From: Isurus oxyrinchus
Taxonomy: Eukaryota
NCBI GenBank assembly: GCA_026770705.1
Contig: JANJGN010000026.1
Location: forward strand, 35,960,001 to 36,024,000
Reading direction: 5' to 3'
Length of the DNA: 64,000 bases
In this document: positions 6,088 through 38,105 of the stretch, one piece after another
Position numbering within the stretch: the stretch's first letter is position 1
How the letters are laid out: the number at the start of each line of letters is the position of its first letter
Position numbers and translations under genes: made by a program
Notes under the pieces: model-generated
Told to the model about the DNA's origin: nothing
Databases searched by the model: none
What the model saw: only the letters and a program-made list of their open reading frames with translations

Positions 6088-6594
6088 ATGATGAGAATCC
6101 TCCTTGTTTTCAACCTGTGTGTCTGTTTACCCCGTGAGTACCGATCACACAAACCAACATTGTGTGGATTTCATATAAAGCTGCCCGAGTCCATCCCAAT
6201 TACAGAGACTATATGGGGGTTTCACCCAGTTCTGTGATTCGGCTCTGATGGTACATTAAAGTCTCTCTGTTTAATTACCAGGAGTTTTCAGTCAGTCAAT
6301 GATACAAACCCCGACAGCGGTGACCAGGAAGGACTGTCAGTCTCTCACCATCACCTATGTTTTCCATGCAGGTTATTGGGATATTTTCCAAACGGGGCTT
6401 TTCATCAGACAAACCCAGACCGAGGCAGAGTGGGAGCCAGTCTCCGACGGTGGGAGATTTGTTGTGTCAATGAATAAAACAGAAAATACATTTTCGTTGG
6501 AAATTCGGGATGTGAAAGTTGAAGATACTATTACTGTAAAGCTCAGTACTACGTTACACAGCGACTGGCCTCGGCTTTCCGCGATACAAAAACT
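6088..6594 (+). pseudogene. NAR-TCR V (IgNAR-like V) pseudogene with leader and 22-nt-spacer RSS
   Basis: Leader 6088-6133 MMRILLVFNLCVCLP|GTGAGT. Exon 6282-6556 RVFSQSMIQTPTAVTRKDCQSLTITYVF...FIRQTQTEAEWEPVSDGGRFVVSMNKTENTFSLEIRDVKVED-(frameshift)-YYCKAQYY. VNAR-like: no CDR2, GGRF/YV, FSLxIxD, YYCKA, extra FR1 Cys. Cys23 is Tyr. RSS CACAGCG (6557-63), 22 nt, ACAAAAACT (6586-94). TATAAA at 6061. Confidence 0.85.
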
Positions 6595-6794
6595 CTCACT
6601 GCAGATTATCACAGAAACAAGTGAAAAAGCGGAGTTACTCTGCCGTTAAACGCCGACAGTTCCCCCTCACACCGTCTGCCCCACAGTCTGATTTAGAATG
6701 AGATTGGTTTATACCCATTAACATCGAGTTTTAAAACTACCAAGTGTGTACGGATGGTGAAGGCTTCCCCGGGGTTGGTGTCGGTGAAATAGAG

Positions 6795-9290
6795 GAACAT
6801 AGAAATATAGCAATAGGAGCAAGAGTAGGCCGTTCGGCCCCTTCGATCTTGCTCCGCCATTCAATATTATCGTTGTTGATCCTCGATTTAAACACCGTAT
6901 TCCCGCTTTCTGTCCATACCTCTTGATGCCACTAATATCCAAAAATGTTTCCATTTTTTCATGAATATACTCAGTGGTCCGGCCTCCACAGCCTTCTTTG
7001 GTTGAGAATTCCATAGGTTGACCACCCTCTGAGTGAAGGAATTTTCCTCATTTCGGTCTTAAATGGTCTTCCCTGTATCCTGAGACTGTGGCCCCTGGTT
7101 CTAGACTCCCCAACGAGGGGAGACATCCTCCCTGCATTTAGTCTGTCTAGCGCTGTTAGAATTATATGTGTTTCAATCAGATCCCCTCTCATTCTTCTAA
7201 ACTCTAGTGAATACAGGCCCAGTCTAACCAATCTCTCCTCATACGACAGTCCTGCCATCAGCCTACTGAACATTCGCTGCACTCCCTCTATGCCAAATAT
7301 ATCCTTTCTTGTGCAGAGAGACCAAAACTGCAACGCTCCAGGTGTGTTCTCACCAAGGTCCTGTGCAACTGCAGTAAAACATCCCTACTTCTGAACTCAA
7401 ATCCTCTTGAAATGAAGGCCAACGTACCATTTGCCTTCCTAATTGCTGTACCTGCCTGTTTAGTTTCATTGGCTGTTGTACAACGACACCCAGATTCCTA
7501 CATCTATATTTCCCAATTTATCACCATTTAAATAATACTCTGCCTTCCTATTTTTCACACCGAAGCGTAAAACTTTATATTTATCCGCATTATACTACAT
7601 TTGCTATGTGTTTGCCCACACACAAACACAACTTGTCTATATTACTCTGAATCTCCCTTGCATACTCCTCACATCTCACAACCCCACTCAGTTTTGTGTC
7701 GTTAGCAAACTTGGAAATATTGCATTTGGTTTCCTCATCCAAATTATCTATATATGTTGTGAATAGCTGGGGCTCAAGCACTGATCCCTGCGGTACACCA
7801 CTAGTCACGTCCTGCCACCTGGGAAAAGACCCATTATTCCCACTGCCTGTTTCTGGTCTGTTAATCAATTCTCAATCCAAGCCAGTATATTACCTCCAAT
7901 CCCAGGTGTTTTACTTTTGCCCACTAGCTTCTTATGTGGGACCTTATCAAAGCCTTCTTGAAATCCAAATACACTACATCCACTGGTTCTCCCTTATCTC
8001 TTCTACTAGTCACATCTTCAGAAAAGCTCGAGTAGATTAGTTAAGCATGATTTCCCTTTCATAATCCGATGCTAACTTTGTCTAATCCCCTTGATGCTTT
8101 CCAAGTGTTCAGTTACCACGTCTTTTACAGCAGACTCTAATATTTTCCCCACTACTGATGTGAGGCTAACTGGTCTGTAATTATTTGTTTTTTCTCTCCC
8201 TCCTTTTTTAAAATGATGGGGTTATATTTGCCACTCTCCAATATGTAGGAACTGTTCCAGAGTCTATGGAATTTTGGAAGGTGACCACCAATGCATCCAA
8301 CATTTCCAGGGCCACTTCCTTCAGAACTCTGGGATGTGGATTATCAGGCCCTGGGGATTTTTCAGACTTTAACCCCATTAATTTCTCCAGCACAATTTTT
8401 TTCACTAATGCTGATTTCCTTCAATTCCTCGCTCTCACTGGGTCCTTGGTTCCCTAACATTTCTGGGAAATTATTTGTGTTGCCTTTTGTGAAGGCAGAA
8501 CCAAAATATCTCTGTAATTCTTCTGTCATTTCTTTGTTCCCAATTATAGTTTCCCCTGTTTCTAACTGTTTGTTTACTAATCTTTTTCTCTTCGCATATT
8601 TATGGATGTTTTTACAATCAGTTTTTATGTTTCCTGCAAATTTACTCTCATACTCCGTTTTCCTCTTCTTGATCAATCTTTTTTCCAGTTGAGCTGAATT
8701 CTAAATTGCTTCCAACCCTCAGGATTGCAGCTTTTTCTGGAAATGTTTTATGTCTACTCGTTGGATCTAATACTATCCATAATTTCTTTTGTCATCCATG
8801 GCTGAACCATCTTTCCTACATTATTTATGCACCAGACGGGAATGAATAATTGTTGTAATTCATGCATACGTTCCTTAAATATTAACCATTGCGGATCTAC
8901 TGTCAGCCCTTTTCGTAAGGTTCCCCAATCTATCATTGCCAACTCTCCCCTCATAACCGTGCAGTTCGCTTTATTTAGATTCAAGACACTAGTTTCGGAT
9001 TCAACTCCTTCACTCTCCATCTTAATGAACAATTCTATCATGTTATTGTAGCTCTTCCCCCAGGGACCCTGCACAACAAGGTTGTTAATTAATCCTTTCT
9101 CATTGCACAATACCCAGTCTCGGATAACCTGCTCTCCAGTTGGCTCCACAATGTATTGCCCTAAAAAACCATCACGTACAGACTCCAGGAAATCCTCCTC
9201 CACAGTATTATTGCTACCTTGGCTGTCCAATCAATACGTGGATTAAAGTCACTCATGATTACAGTTGTACTCTTATTGCATACGTCTCTA
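6795..9290 (-). mobile_element. CR1-type LINE (late endonuclease region to RT and 3' end) inserted between the NAR-TCR V and D
   Basis: Broken ORFs with KSPGPD-HPRVLKE, W-VANITP-F, VTSGVPQGSVL, KFANDTKL, TRGHSL. Confidence 0.92.
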
Positions 9291-9450
9291 ACTCAGTAAT
9301 TTATTTTCTAATTCCTGAATGAGGATTGGGAATGACTGATCCTAGTTACAAACCCCTAACACCACATGTGATCCTGTTCTAACAGCTGGAACCGGGAACC
9401 ACAGTCCCCGCTGTTTAACTAATGTTCCCACATCTCACCAAGTATCCATG

Positions 9451-9509
9451 GTACTTTATACTGACTTGTAACACGGGCAGTCACAGTGGGAGAGAACAGG
9501 GCAAATACC
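9451..9509 (+). pseudogene. Putative NAR-TCR D segment flanked by 12-RSS on both sides (5' RSS degenerate)
   Basis: 3' RSS: CACAGTG (9482-88), 12 nt, GCAAATACC (9501-09). 5' side: GTACTTTAT, 12 nt, CACGGGC (9451-78). Lies between the NAR-like V and J. Confidence 0.55.
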
Positions 9510-9816
9510 TTTGTAAATATTAATTCTCTGCGCCCGGATAGTGAATTGTCCGGTTGATGGTATTATCGTTGCAATATGGTGACATTTCATTGCAATTTCC
9601 ACCATTCAGTTATCTTTCTTTGATATTTTTCTCGGTTTATATGAAGCGAACATCTCATTCCCGGGACCATTTACTCAGAGCTCAGGGCCTCACAAAGAAC
9701 AGTTTGAATCGATAGAGTCTTTGAAACATTGAATATTAACTATTCATTTAAACCCGCTGTATAACTGTGAGGTATTTCTTGCTTGATGATGATTTCCCAG
9801 CAGGTTGAGTTGTCGA

Positions 9817-9900
9817 TGATTTTGTACCTGGAAGAGTGAGAGTGGCGTGCTAATTATGTAGATGGATCCGGGATGATGGTGACTGTCACAGCCGATAAGT
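9817..9900 (+). pseudogene. NAR-TCR J segment (IgNAR/IgH-like), pseudogenised
   Basis: 9850-9894 encodes NYVDGSGMMVTVTA (GxGT motif with T>M). The phase-1 donor has mutated to ATAAGT. Upstream TGATTTTGT...TGGCGTG is a degenerate RSS with a shortened (17-nt) spacer. Confidence 0.75.
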
Positions 9901-10439
9901 GACTCTGTAGCCCGCATGTTGCACACTGTGCTGGATAATGTTCACCGTCAGCCCTATTATTGTGATCAGCATCGTTTCAATCACATCGAAGCTAAAGAAA
10001 AACGATTTCTAAGGGACGTTTTCCGTTGCAGGCTTGGATTTGGGAACAGGATTCTGAATCGACATTCTGGTCATTTTATCCGCCATGTCTTTCAATTGTC
10101 TTCATATACCCAATCACTTTCCTCCTTTTCCGGCCTCAGACCGAAATGTGAAAGTTTGGAACTGCAGACACTTCTCTATGTTGAATGTCGATGTTTGAGA
10201 GATGGGATTGCTGTAGCTTCTCTGTATCCCTGATTACTGTGAATTGAAAGAGCACAGTGCAGTGAGAGAGTGAGGATGATGCATTAATCTTATAAAGGAG
10301 AACAGGGACATAAGGAAACAATCATAAACTGAGAGAATGTTCATTTATAACCAGCAAGAAATAATTAATCGAATGGGAGAGAAGGATTGGATAATCTCTG
10401 GACTGTTAAAAGTACAATCCGAGCCCAGGGTGGTGCGTG

Positions 10440-10770
10440 ATGTTTATGGAGAGAAGGACTCCAGTTTGGAATGCTGTGTAAATTCTGGTCTCTTTCTTAG
10501 TGAAGGTTCTACATGCTTTGCAACAAATGTTCACCAGACTAATTCCTGAGGGAAAGGGATTGTCCTATTAGAAGAGATTGAGTAGACTGGGCCTGTGTTC
10601 CCTAGAGTTTACAGGAATGAGGGGCGATCTCATGAGAACACATAATGTCCTTAAGGGGCTTGAGAGGGAAGATTCTAGGTGGGAGTTTCCTCAGGTTGGA
10701 AAGTCTACAATTGGGAGCCACAGCTTCAGCATAAGGGGTCGGCCATTAGAACTGAGAAGAGAGAAGTTTC
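10440..10770 (+). mobile_element. CR1-type LINE 3' fragment
   Basis: RLGLCSLEF-MRGDL...GSHSFSIRG. Confidence 0.75.
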
Positions 10771-11305
10771 AATCAATGCTGATTAATCACGATCACTTTC
10801 ATTTTGTTCATGCTGTGCGCATTGATGCTGATGCGGATTGTCCCGTACACTCATTTTTTGGAAACTGATTGCCTCACTGATAATAAATGTTCCCTCGGGG
10901 TGTCACTCACCAAGGAAAATAGAAGCAGACATGTAATATACATCATAGAACCATGCCGAGAGGTAGGATAATATTCGGTCCAAAGTACAATCTAATTTCT
11001 ACCAAAATGCACGTATTTCATCATGTGGCTGCACATTTTTCCTGTTGCAGTACAGTTACATCATCCATTTGAAAGTTCCCACAGACTCTGTTCGCACCAC
11101 TCATTCTGTCCGCGCAGTGCTGATTGGAAAAATTCTCGATGCAAAAGAAAATTGTCATCTCTGCACTTAGTCACATTTCAATGCCTGTGAATATGGTTGG
11201 AACAGGCTTCAAGTTAAGAAAAACGAACTTTTCATGTCATTGACAAATTCTCCCAGGTAAACAATGGCTAAGCAAACAAATAACGTTCATTTTTTTATTC
11301 TCCAG

Positions 11306-11392
11306 ATTCCAGTTCCCTGGTGTCTTGGTGCTCTGCAAACCTCTGCTGTCGGTGACACCGTTACTTGAAGCTGCGAATGTTCAGGGTTAGAT
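11306..11392 (+). pseudogene. 5' fragment of a leaderless supporting TCRdelta V of the NAR-TCR cassette
   Basis: Polypyrimidine tract plus CAG acceptor ending at 11305, then DSSSLV-(fs)-ALQTSAVGDTVT*SCECSG (FR1 to Cys23). No leader exon seen between J and this exon. Truncated at CDR1. Confidence 0.65.
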
Positions 11393-11395
11393 CAT

Positions 11396-11728
11396 GGAGA
11401 GAGCTGTACAGAAACCTGAACATGGTGGGATTACAGACATACAGTGATATAGAGCGCGGAGAGAGCTGTAGAAAAACCTGAACATGGTGGGATTACAGAC
11501 ACACTGTGATACAGAGCGCGGAGAGACCTGTACAAAAACCTGAACATGGTGGGAATACAGACACACAGTGATACAGAGCGCGGAGAGAGACCTGTACAAA
11601 AACCTGAACATGGTGGGATTACAGACACACAGTGATACAGAGTGCAGAGAGAGCTGTACAAAAACGTGAACATGGTGGAATTACAGACACACAGTGATAC
11701 AGAGCGCGGAGAGAGCCCTACAAAAAGC
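11396..11728 (+). repeat. 62-bp tandem array in which each unit is a full 23-RSS
   Basis: Unit = TGAACATGGTGGGATTACAGACA + CACAGTG + 23 nt + ACAAAAACC. Heptamers at 11440, 11502, 11564, 11628, 11690. Nonamers at 11408, 11470, 11532, 11596, 11658, 11720. Confidence 0.95.
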
Positions 11729-11776
11729 TGAACAAAGTGGGGATTCACGGAGCATGGAGAGAATGTCGATAGATAG

Positions 11777-12055
11777 NNNNNNNNNNNNNNNNNNNNNNNN
11801 NNNNNNNNNNNNNNNNNNNNNNNNNNNNNNNNNNNNNNNNNNNNNNNNNNNNNNNNNNNNNNNNNNNNNNNNNNNNNNNNNNNNNNNNNNNNNNNNNNNN
11901 NNNNNNNNNNNNNNNNNNNNNNNNNNNNNNNNNNNNNNNNNNNNNNNNNNNNNNNNNNNNNNNNNNNNNNNNNNNNNNNNNNNNNNNNNNNNNNNNNNNN
12001 NNNNNNNNNNNNNNNNNNNNNNNNNNNNNNNNNNNNNNNNNNNNNNNNNNNNNNN
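11777..12055. other. Assembly gap flanked by GATA repeats
   Basis: Run of N. Confidence 1.
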
Positions 12056-12611
12056 TGATAAAATAGATAGAACATGATTTTGCTATTTAAGGACTCTTTG
12101 CTCTGAAGACAAAGGAGCAGTAAAAACGAATTGATAGATTTTAGGTGATGATTGACATAGCTTCAGATATGAATGTACATGCTGACACTGACCGGGATAA
12201 AAATCTTGTCAGAGAAGCAATTTGAATTATGGATCGATGAATAGAAGAGAGTTGTATCAATGTTGGAAGGGGCAAACAGAGAGAAAATTAAAAATGAATA
12301 AAACATTCAAATAATGTTGGGCGACAGCCAAAAGTGAAAACTCCAGACGGTAAATTGACCACATTATTTCCGCTCTGGGACCCTGCGCTTTATTTGGAGC
12401 CTTTGTCAGTTGAGGCTTTCTTCGCCAGCACATCGACCCCCATCTCATCCAAAAGCCCGGTTTCGATGAGCTGCCTATGATCATTGCTGAGGTTTGTGAC
12501 AATCAGCACTGCTTGCGGTCCTGCAAGGAGTCTCCCTGAACTCTTCTGCTGTGCCCCTCATACCTGGACTCGAGAATGTGTGAGGGTTCTGTCTATTCTT
12601 GCCGATCACTG

Positions 12612-35588: not shown

Positions 35589-35889
35589 TGTCGTTGTCCG
35601 CCCTGTCAAAAGGCTGCTCGATATTTGAAGACACCCTTTCTAATCCCCGCCCTTAGGAACCGGTTGTCCTGTCACAGGATGTTTACTCCTCACTTCCTGT
35701 GTCCCCTGTAGTGCGGCGAGACCGACAGGTTTTGAGAGAGCAGAGAGTCAATGAGCTGGATTGAACGTGGGCGGTCCGGTGTGAGCTCAGAGGCAGGGTG
35801 AGCCGTTGTCAGTGTGAAATATTGAATGTGGGCGGTCCGGCCTGAGCTCAGAAACAGGTTGATCTGGTGTCAGTGCCGTGTACTGATCA

Positions 35890-36091
35890 AGGCAGTTCCA
35901 GAATCAGCCACCCCCGCATCTGGTTATGGCCACAAGAGGATCTAACCAGCACGAGAGAATCACAGTTCAGTAGGTGGAGATAACAAACTCAGTACTCTGA
36001 CTGTGAGGGGCGCTTGGCTTCCTGACACTGCCACTTATCTCTGCGCCATGAGACACAGTATAACAAAAGACTTCGAGCCCAAACAAAAACC
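35890..36091 (+). pseudogene. TCR V 3' half (family of the 41.7-kb V)
   Basis: RQFQNQPPPHLVMATRG...LSTLTVRGAWLPDTATYLCAMR. RSS CACAGTA (36054-60), 22 nt, ACAAAAACC (36083-91). Preceded by ~2 units of the 59-bp promoter-like repeat. Confidence 0.8.
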
Positions 36092-37379: not shown

Positions 37380-38105
37380 AGTGAGGCTGGTTCATTTTGA
37401 GCTCAGAGAGTGTGAGCTGGTCTCACTGAGAAACACAGAGTGTGGACGGCCCGGTGTGAGTTCAGCGAGTGTGAGCTGGTCTCAGTGTGAAACACTGAAT
37501 GTGGACGGCCCGGTGTGAGCTCAAAGAGTGTGAGCTGGTCTCAGTGATGAATGCTGACTGTGGGCGGCCCGATGTGAGCTCAGAGAGTGTGAGCTGGTCT
37601 CAGTGAGAAACACTGTGTGCAGACGGCCCGGTGTGAGCTCAGCGAGTGTAAACTGGTCTCAGTGTGAAACACTGAGTGTGGACGGCCCAGTGTGAGCTCA
37701 GAGAGTGTGGGCTGGTCTCAATGATGAACGCTGACTGTGGGCAGCCCGATGTGAGCTCAGAGAGTGTGAGCTGGTCTCAGTGAGAAATGCTAAGTGTGGG
37801 TGGCCCGGTGTGAGCTCAGAGAGTGTGAGCTGTTCTCAGTGAAAAATGCTGAGTGTGGGCGGCTAAGTGTGAGCTCAGAGAGTGTGAGCTGGACTCAGTG
37901 AGAAACACTGAGTATGGGCGGCCCGATGTGAGCTCAGAGAGTGTGAGCTGGCCTCAGTGAGAAACAATGAGTGTGGGTGGACTGGTATGAACTCAGAGAC
38001 CGTGAGCTGGTCGCAGTGAGAAACACTGAGCGTGGACGGCCGAATGTGAGCTCGGGGAGTGTGAGCTGGTGTCCTGCAGAAAGACTGAGTGTGGGGTACG
38101 GCGTG
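37380..38105 (+). repeat. ~59-bp minisatellite, ~12 units
   Basis: Unit GAGCTCAGAGAGTGTGAGCTGGTCTCAGTGAGAAACACTGAGTGTGGGCGGCCCGGTGT. Confidence 0.95.

Follow-up and report, generated by a model that had tools for sequence, protein, structure and literature searches.

A dead NAR-TCR cassette in the T-cell receptor alpha/delta V region of Isurus oxyrinchus and the tandem recombination signals and stacked germline-joined V exons of its relatives

Introduction

The NAR-TCR is a doubly rearranging T-cell receptor (TCR) delta chain of cartilaginous fish (PMC1845163). As published, it has two variable (V) domains, both rearranged, namely an IgNAR-like V with a leader, an a-b-loop cysteine and no tryptophan in framework region (FR) 2, which is provided with its own diversity (D) and joining (J) segments, and a leaderless supporting V, all located in the TCR alpha/delta region (PMC1845163, PMC3457774, PMC12227049, PMC3149040). 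The a-b-loop cysteine and a cysteine in complementarity-determining region (CDR) 1 of the supporting V have been proposed to form an interdomain bond (PMC1845163). Germline-joined V exons are known from other systems: marsupial TCR-mu contains one under a rearranging V (PMC3457774, PMC7615758), newt TRD contains a leaderless pre-joined V (PMC12698447), and shark immunoglobulin (Ig) light chain genes have been joined in germ cells in a RAG-like manner (PMC2193156). Together with PMC5931798, PMC3964593, PMC6795676 and PMC13433984, these are the papers of which passages were compared here. The present analysis concerns a stretch of 64,000 nucleotides from Isurus oxyrinchus (the window; positions 35960001-36024000 of contig JANJGN010000026.1, here C26), in which a cassette with the published NAR-TCR features occurs in a dead state.

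Taken by itself, this cassette is ordinary, being one of five dead copies on C26. Its relatives in the same genome suggest a more elaborate receptor, to which we give about an even chance: shark TCR-delta chains of three to five V domains, in which a rearranging NAR V would stand atop one to three leaderless, germline-joined, invariant spacers that grip the upper a-b-loop cysteine through a cysteine in CDR3, with a supporting V-delta at the base and an array of recombination signals promoting the joining of the latter, in a locus that germline RAG activity has built and continues to remodel.

Results and Discussion

Identity of the window cassette

Positions 6088-11741 of the window hold a dead NAR-TCR cassette that consists of a leader, a NAR-type V, a long interspersed nuclear element (LINE), a D, a J, a leaderless supporting V-delta remnant and an array of recombination signal sequences (RSS) (Table 1). 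A first-pass annotation had recognized the leader, a VNAR-like V, an insertion, D, J and an FR1 fragment of the supporting V on the plus strand and had proposed the NAR-TCR organization; when 6088-11776 was read and translated on this strand, each part was found at its place. The interval given there, 6088-11728, is right as to the parts of the cassette, but its last 350 bases are a tandem RSS array that had not been recognized.

The assignment to NAR-TCR, for which the defining features were taken from PMC1845163, is supported by several lines of evidence. The top 29 PDB matches of the window V are VNARs. A search of the same genome with this V yielded 219 candidates; all 150 that were scored matched, 148 of them being of the NAR-TCR type at 47-100% identity and the other two being IgNAR Vs with an identity of about 40%. 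A tree was built from 70 V domains (87 columns), with the IgNAR V-D-J clusters of the same genome at C42:6123566 and C100:787923 (L101, L103) as the outgroup; in it, the window V is inside a NAR group (48 rows, support 96/92), sister to the two IgNAR Vs and apart from the conventional and the supporting Vs. The proposal thus withstands this test: the V does not cluster with conventional TRAV/TRDV, the traits of which (CDR2 and the FR2 tryptophan) it also lacks, with GLFIRQ present where a WYRK motif is expected. About 1 Mb was fetched for comparison, covering the surroundings of most NAR V matches on C26 and a part of C242, and in these stretches the full order leader-V-RSS-D-J-supporting V-repeat is found in 24 cassettes.

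Alignment to four intact cassettes of the same genome confirmed the positions of D and J. Identity to these cassettes is 82-84% for the window V, 86-89% for the J (9850-9894; all four cassettes) and 75-83% for the supporting V remnant (11306-11394). The alignment scores of this remnant are 97-114 with the four intact supporting Vs, compared with 28-39 when 11 conventional Vs from the window are used. The a-b-loop cysteine, present in all 45 open NAR V paralogues, is kept in the window V (TGT, 6335-6337). Intact paralogous cassettes have the RSS layout 22-12/12-23, which makes their own D and J compatible under the 12/23 rule; the window copy retains relics of this layout, including the 22-nt V spacer that is normal for the family. 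The cassette is surrounded by conventional Vs. On the minus strand at C26 29.899-29.929 Mb, 6 Mb away, there is a cluster that comprises one D (12/23), some 11 Js that have 12-RSSs, and a TCR constant gene; the presence of the D points to TCR-delta as the identity of this cluster. V cassettes are located on both sides of the D-J-C cluster and on both strands, over about 17 Mb.

The window V is similar to IgNAR Vs in the absence of CDR2 and in its sister position in the tree, and its best PDB matches are IgNAR VNARs, so that a stray IgNAR fragment, or a chance neighborhood of unrelated V relics, had to be considered. However, identity to the IgNAR Vs of the genome is about 40% vs 60-70% to NAR-TCR Vs; the IgNAR loci lie on separate contigs, have the FR2 tryptophan and contain several D signals, in contrast to the single D, the a-b-loop cysteine and the missing FR2 tryptophan of the window cassette; and the same order with homologous introns recurs in 24 cassettes. 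The alignment of homologous cassettes and the tree rule out this explanation, which we regard as having a negligible probability.

Some points weigh against the assignment to NAR-TCR. The defining CDR1 cysteine of the supporting V, found in 29 of the 30 open paralogues, is deleted in the window copy, so the class of this remnant rests on FR1 similarity and context. No named nurse shark NAR-TCR or TAILV sequence was among the database matches, and the reference set is labelled NAR-TCR from its anatomy, the database names being automatic and unrelated. The window V forms a long branch in the 87-column tree, and the constant region is a putative C-delta.

The segment anatomy of intact cassettes is directly visible, and their rearrangement can be predicted from the 12/23 rule and the literature. 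Within the cassette, recombination would follow V(22)-(12)D(12)-(23)J; the 23-RSS of the supporting V would link this V to the distant D-J-C cluster, and splicing would then yield leader-NARV-Vdelta-C.

In the window copy, the codon of Cys23 is TAT (6356-6358; Cys23>Tyr), and a 7-nt deletion near 6527, directly 5' of YYC, shifts the frame relative to the paralogues. The 5' 12-RSS of the D, previously described as degenerate, is indeed damaged, but by a 14-15-nt deletion that took away half of the D along with four bases of the heptamer; the 3' RSS, CACAGTG/12/GCAAATACC, is intact. The supporting V remnant has its acceptor AG at 11304-11305, and no leader match was found between it and the J. 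It carries a TGA stop (11366-11368), a frameshifting 5-nt deletion and a 229-nt deletion reaching into the first RSS, which took out the CDR1 cysteine and the first heptamer. Given the frameshift, the loss of Cys23, the lost heptamers, the dead donor and the stop, the cassette is a pseudogene and can make neither a protein nor a normal V-D-J join.

Stacked, germline-joined NAR V exons

On C26, 66 NAR V exons were annotated, which is a lower bound as at least one more was seen; they comprise 36 unrearranged exons, 16 with a VD join and 14 with a VDJ join. The VDJ-joined exons form only two families, of 11 and 3 copies, so that counts over them are not independent. Their leaders are broken in 13 of 14 cases (intact leaders are found in 31 of the 36 unrearranged and in all 16 VD-joined exons), the frame is open in 11, one of these with a four-codon deletion, and a CDR3 cysteine is present in all 14. 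All but one (13/14) have another NAR V-J on one side and a supporting V on the other, with up to three in a row. Cassettes with one to three mostly leaderless, open, germline-joined NAR VDJ exons placed after a rearranging NAR V-D-J and ahead of the supporting V occur at C26 35.936-35.947 Mb (L021, L022, L093), at a distance of 18-24 kb from the start of the window, and at 30.05, 31.15, 37.89-37.92 and 38.75-38.77 Mb. We also observe VD-joined NAR Vs at 16 places on C26 (e.g., 33.25, 36.47 and 38.70 Mb), which keep the 3' 12-RSS of the D and an intact leader.

These exons could be decaying relics that are skipped in splicing, or could serve as a lone alternative first V, in which case the chains would have at most two V domains. 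This alternative has to be taken seriously, although we consider its chance to fall somewhat short of even. Three of the 14 joined exons contain a stop and one has an intact leader, and protein models of other sharks (P0003, P0007, P0018) give joined exons a leader of their own. Broken leaders in 13 of 14 exons are, however, combined with open frames in 11, and the CDR3 cysteine is universal. Furthermore, among eight open members of the larger family, all 27 differing pairs have dN/dS values of 0.16-0.65 (dS up to 0.30), despite the same leader stop in seven members of the family; the pairs were taken within this family only, and CDR3s differ by one codon between the families.

The same joined CDR3s are found in models from Carcharodon and Cetorhinus (P0001, P0003, P0007, P0018), and P0001 and P0002, from Carcharodon and Heterodontus, already contain a supporting V to which two NAR VJ exons are spliced; in the database, these two are named DSCAM-like or uncharacterized. 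In several other models, such as P0005 and P0006, an apparently joined CDR3 results from reading through the J heptamer, and these were excluded from the germline joins. Contigs of four runs from a relative (X9, X11, X12 and X14), which are probably RNA, were aligned to one joined exon. The loose ends of contigs at splice sites connect the joined exon to the supporting V in X9 (one contig) and X12 (two contigs), which represent two studies, and a leader-to-V splice is seen in X12. A J end is joined to a NAR V start in a single 125-nt contig of X12 (depth 4.7), and X11 and X14 yielded nothing on the joined exon; that just one contig has the J-to-NAR-V splice and that two of the four runs are empty count in favor of the relic explanation. 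The J of this X12 contig contains a Glu codon that is present in 8 of 13 joined Js and in none of 21 split Js; the contig therefore shows the splice from a joined exon to a NAR V, not yet that from a rearranged V to a joined exon. The X12 contig and P0001 encode the same junction and thus may not be independent. No single natural sequence combines a complete upstream NAR V with a joined exon.

On balance, the stacked exons are likely to yield chains with three or more V domains. As the a-b-loop cysteine and the CDR1 cysteine of the supporting V are proposed to bond, the CDR3 cysteine of a joined exon could act in the same way one level up. Like marsupial TCR-mu and newt TRD, the stacked cassettes contain pre-joined V exons, which as in TCR-mu are invariant and lie below a single-domain V that rearranges, but the origin is independent: here, the joined exon is NAR-type in the tree, not VH-like as in mammalian TRM, so that the likeness to TCR-mu is an analogy only. 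Unlike in those systems, it is added to a supporting V that still rearranges, and up to three such exons are stacked. RSS arrays, NAR V stacks and germline-joined NAR-TCR exons were not found in the excerpts searched; Criscitiello 2006 and 2010, Deiss 2019 and Ott 2021 were outside the scope of this search and could describe some of them.

Tandem RSS arrays behind supporting V genes

The unit of the array behind the supporting V remnant is a 23-RSS plus 23 nt. Its RSSs at 11628 and 11690 are near-canonical, and two or three RSSs of the array look usable, so non-productive joins could still occur. With an array defined as at least two RSSs within 260 nt 3' of a V, 26 of the 32 supporting Vs in the C26 stretches compared are followed by one, as opposed to none of 19 NAR Vs and 5 conventional Vs (seven rows, five supporting and two NAR, were classed by motif). 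None of the 11 conventional window Vs with a detectable RSS is followed by an array either. The largest array has nine matches in 10 units, and one RSS behind a supporting V was used in the germline signal joint described below. The idea that the window array is an assembly artefact, given the N run at 11777-12055 nearby, was rejected because such arrays are found again at many other loci, including some on different contigs.

The most likely role of the array, which we put at even odds, is to aid the capture of a supporting V by RAG. The first heptamer carries an in-frame TGA, and therefore joins at distal copies cannot lengthen CDR3; such a join would be non-productive until re-joined at the first RSS. 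The other explanation, whose chance we place only just under one in two, sees the array as a neutral minisatellite, created a single time by slippage downstream of a supporting V and since then carried along by cassette duplication. A single origin would account for the specificity for one V class, and the variation in copy number, from 1 to 9-10, the degeneration of many distal copies and the persistence of arrays behind dead Vs fit this explanation and count against a role in capture. Conversely, many distal copies keep the 23-nt spacer along with a near-canonical heptamer and nonamer, and similar units occur behind supporting Vs of orectolobiform sharks, where protein models of Hemiscyllium and Stegostoma run on into them (P0039, P0040, P0043, P0021).

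A putative germline signal joint

A precise 12-RSS/23-RSS signal joint is present at C26:29964803-29964826 (29964820; L111) and at C242:380218-380241. It is a head-to-head fusion of the heptamers of a NAR-D 5' 12-RSS and a supporting-V 23-RSS, with the D, the J and the supporting V gone; its sequence has these two matches in the genome, and the reversed control has none. C242 at 217-617 kb contains a second constant gene and a tandem run of NAR cassettes together with this second joint. The distance from the joint to the constant gene is 237 kb on C242 vs 62 kb on C26, and C242 is either a divergent haplotype or a duplicated block.

The germline-joined shark Ig light chains (PMC2193156) likewise reflect RAG-like joining in germ cells; in contrast to them, the present case involves a TCR locus and a retained signal joint, a term that is absent from the available text of that paper. 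No report of a germline signal joint of NAR-TCR was found in the excerpts searched, a scope that does not include the primary NAR-TCR papers.

Inactivation and duplication of the dead cassette

The same dead type was identified in 12 other stretches, 4 on C26 and 8 on other contigs, with identities to the window copy of 98.4% (C140), 92.8% (C242) and 87-88% for the rest. All eight aligned dead copies have the same LINE junction, deletion of the J heptamer, stop and large deletion in the supporting V. The AT donor is found in seven of the eight and the D deletion in all five that keep the region, but the V frameshift is limited to three and the 5-nt deletion of the supporting V to two, and three sister copies keep Cys23. 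Because some lesions are common to all dead copies and others are partial, it appears that the cassette died once, was duplicated and kept decaying; a dead NAR-TCR cassette that was inactivated once and then duplicated several times within the TCR alpha/delta V region is a highly probable interpretation. Accordingly, the lesions listed in the first-pass annotation all hold against intact paralogues, but they are not private to the window copy and are largely common to a duplicated dead subfamily. The deletion of the J heptamer and the 5-nt frameshift of the supporting V come in addition to the lesions listed there. That the cassette is long dead, as had been stated, is supported, albeit without a date, by the 12% divergence between dead copies.

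It is conceivable, but unlikely in our judgment, that germline RAG activity inactivated the cassette. In this case, the D 5' 12-RSS and the J 23-RSS would have been cut together and resealed with loss (open-and-shut), and a deletion would have passed through the first RSS of the supporting V. Three of the eight deletions of at least 5 nt that are common to four dead copies span one of five cleavage sites, for which simulated random placement gives P=0.002 (P=0.006 for two of the seven short ones), and two of the spanning deletions sit at a valid 12/23 pair. RAG-type events have reached this locus, as indicated by the 30 of 66 NAR Vs that are VD- or VDJ-joined and by the precise signal joint, and shark Ig genes have been joined in the germline (PMC2193156). 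However, the test is post hoc and concerns a single ancestral lineage, and neither P nor N additions are visible where the D and the J are broken. Although signal ends are as a rule preserved, those found here have lost 4-8 nt. The absence of spanning deletions from the 24 comparison cassettes is no control because these were picked for intact signals.

Feature map and surroundings

The LINE interrupts the cassette between V and D as an insertion flanked by a 4-nt target duplication (TGAA), and paralogues are contiguous across the site. The earlier label CR1 is less firm than the insertion itself: a reverse transcriptase match (RVT_1, E=0.0015, under the gathering score) was obtained with one of six fragments, and its motifs suggest the CR1 clade.

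Table 1. Cassette features, in window positions
Feature	Position	Strand	Basis
Leader exon of NAR-TCR V, intact, GT donor at 6134	6088..6133	+	Translation and paralogues
NAR-type V exon, pseudogene	6282..6556	+	Translation, PDB matches, tree
V RSS, 22-nt spacer: CACAGCG/22/ACAAAAACT	6557..6594	+	RSS match
5'-truncated LINE insertion, CR1-like, decayed ORF2, 2527 nt	6789..9315	-	Paralogue alignment
D remnant with 7 nt of its coding sequence and an intact 3' 12-RSS at 9482-9509	9451..9509	+	Paralogue alignment
J lacking the heptamer and the 5' end of the coding part through deletion; coding part at 9850-9894, donor GT>AT	9817..9896	+	Paralogue alignment
Leaderless supporting V-delta remnant, FR1 only	11306..11394	+	Alignment to intact supporting Vs
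62-bp tandem repeat, 5.5 copies, unit = 23-RSS + 23 nt	11396..11741	+	Repeat and RSS match
Array heptamers	11440 (TAC, dead), 11502, 11564 (25-nt spacer), 11628, 11690	+	RSS match

Directly 3' of the array, at 11767-12075, there is a GATA microsatellite with a run of 279 Ns (11777-12055); the microsatellite is complete in sister copies. Between 15900 and 63950, the two strands encode at least 14 conventional TCR V genes or pseudogenes, none of which has more than one RSS. Related tandem repeats of 61 bp and 59 bp are located at 35760-35875 and 37398-38095, respectively, and the former interrupts a V pseudogene that ends at 36054.

Implications

The dead cassette alone adds a pseudogene to a known family, and it is the array and the stacked, pre-joined neighbors that matter more. 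A V class with tandem RSSs provides a natural test of whether the number of signals steers the choice made by RAG. Should the precise signal joint seen in the assembly of this TCR locus be confirmed to be inherited, it would be direct evidence of RAG action in the germline. If the stacked exons are used in the way proposed here, stackable invariant NAR domains would allow the length of a T-cell receptor to be adjusted and would provide a naturally occurring multi-VNAR scaffold.

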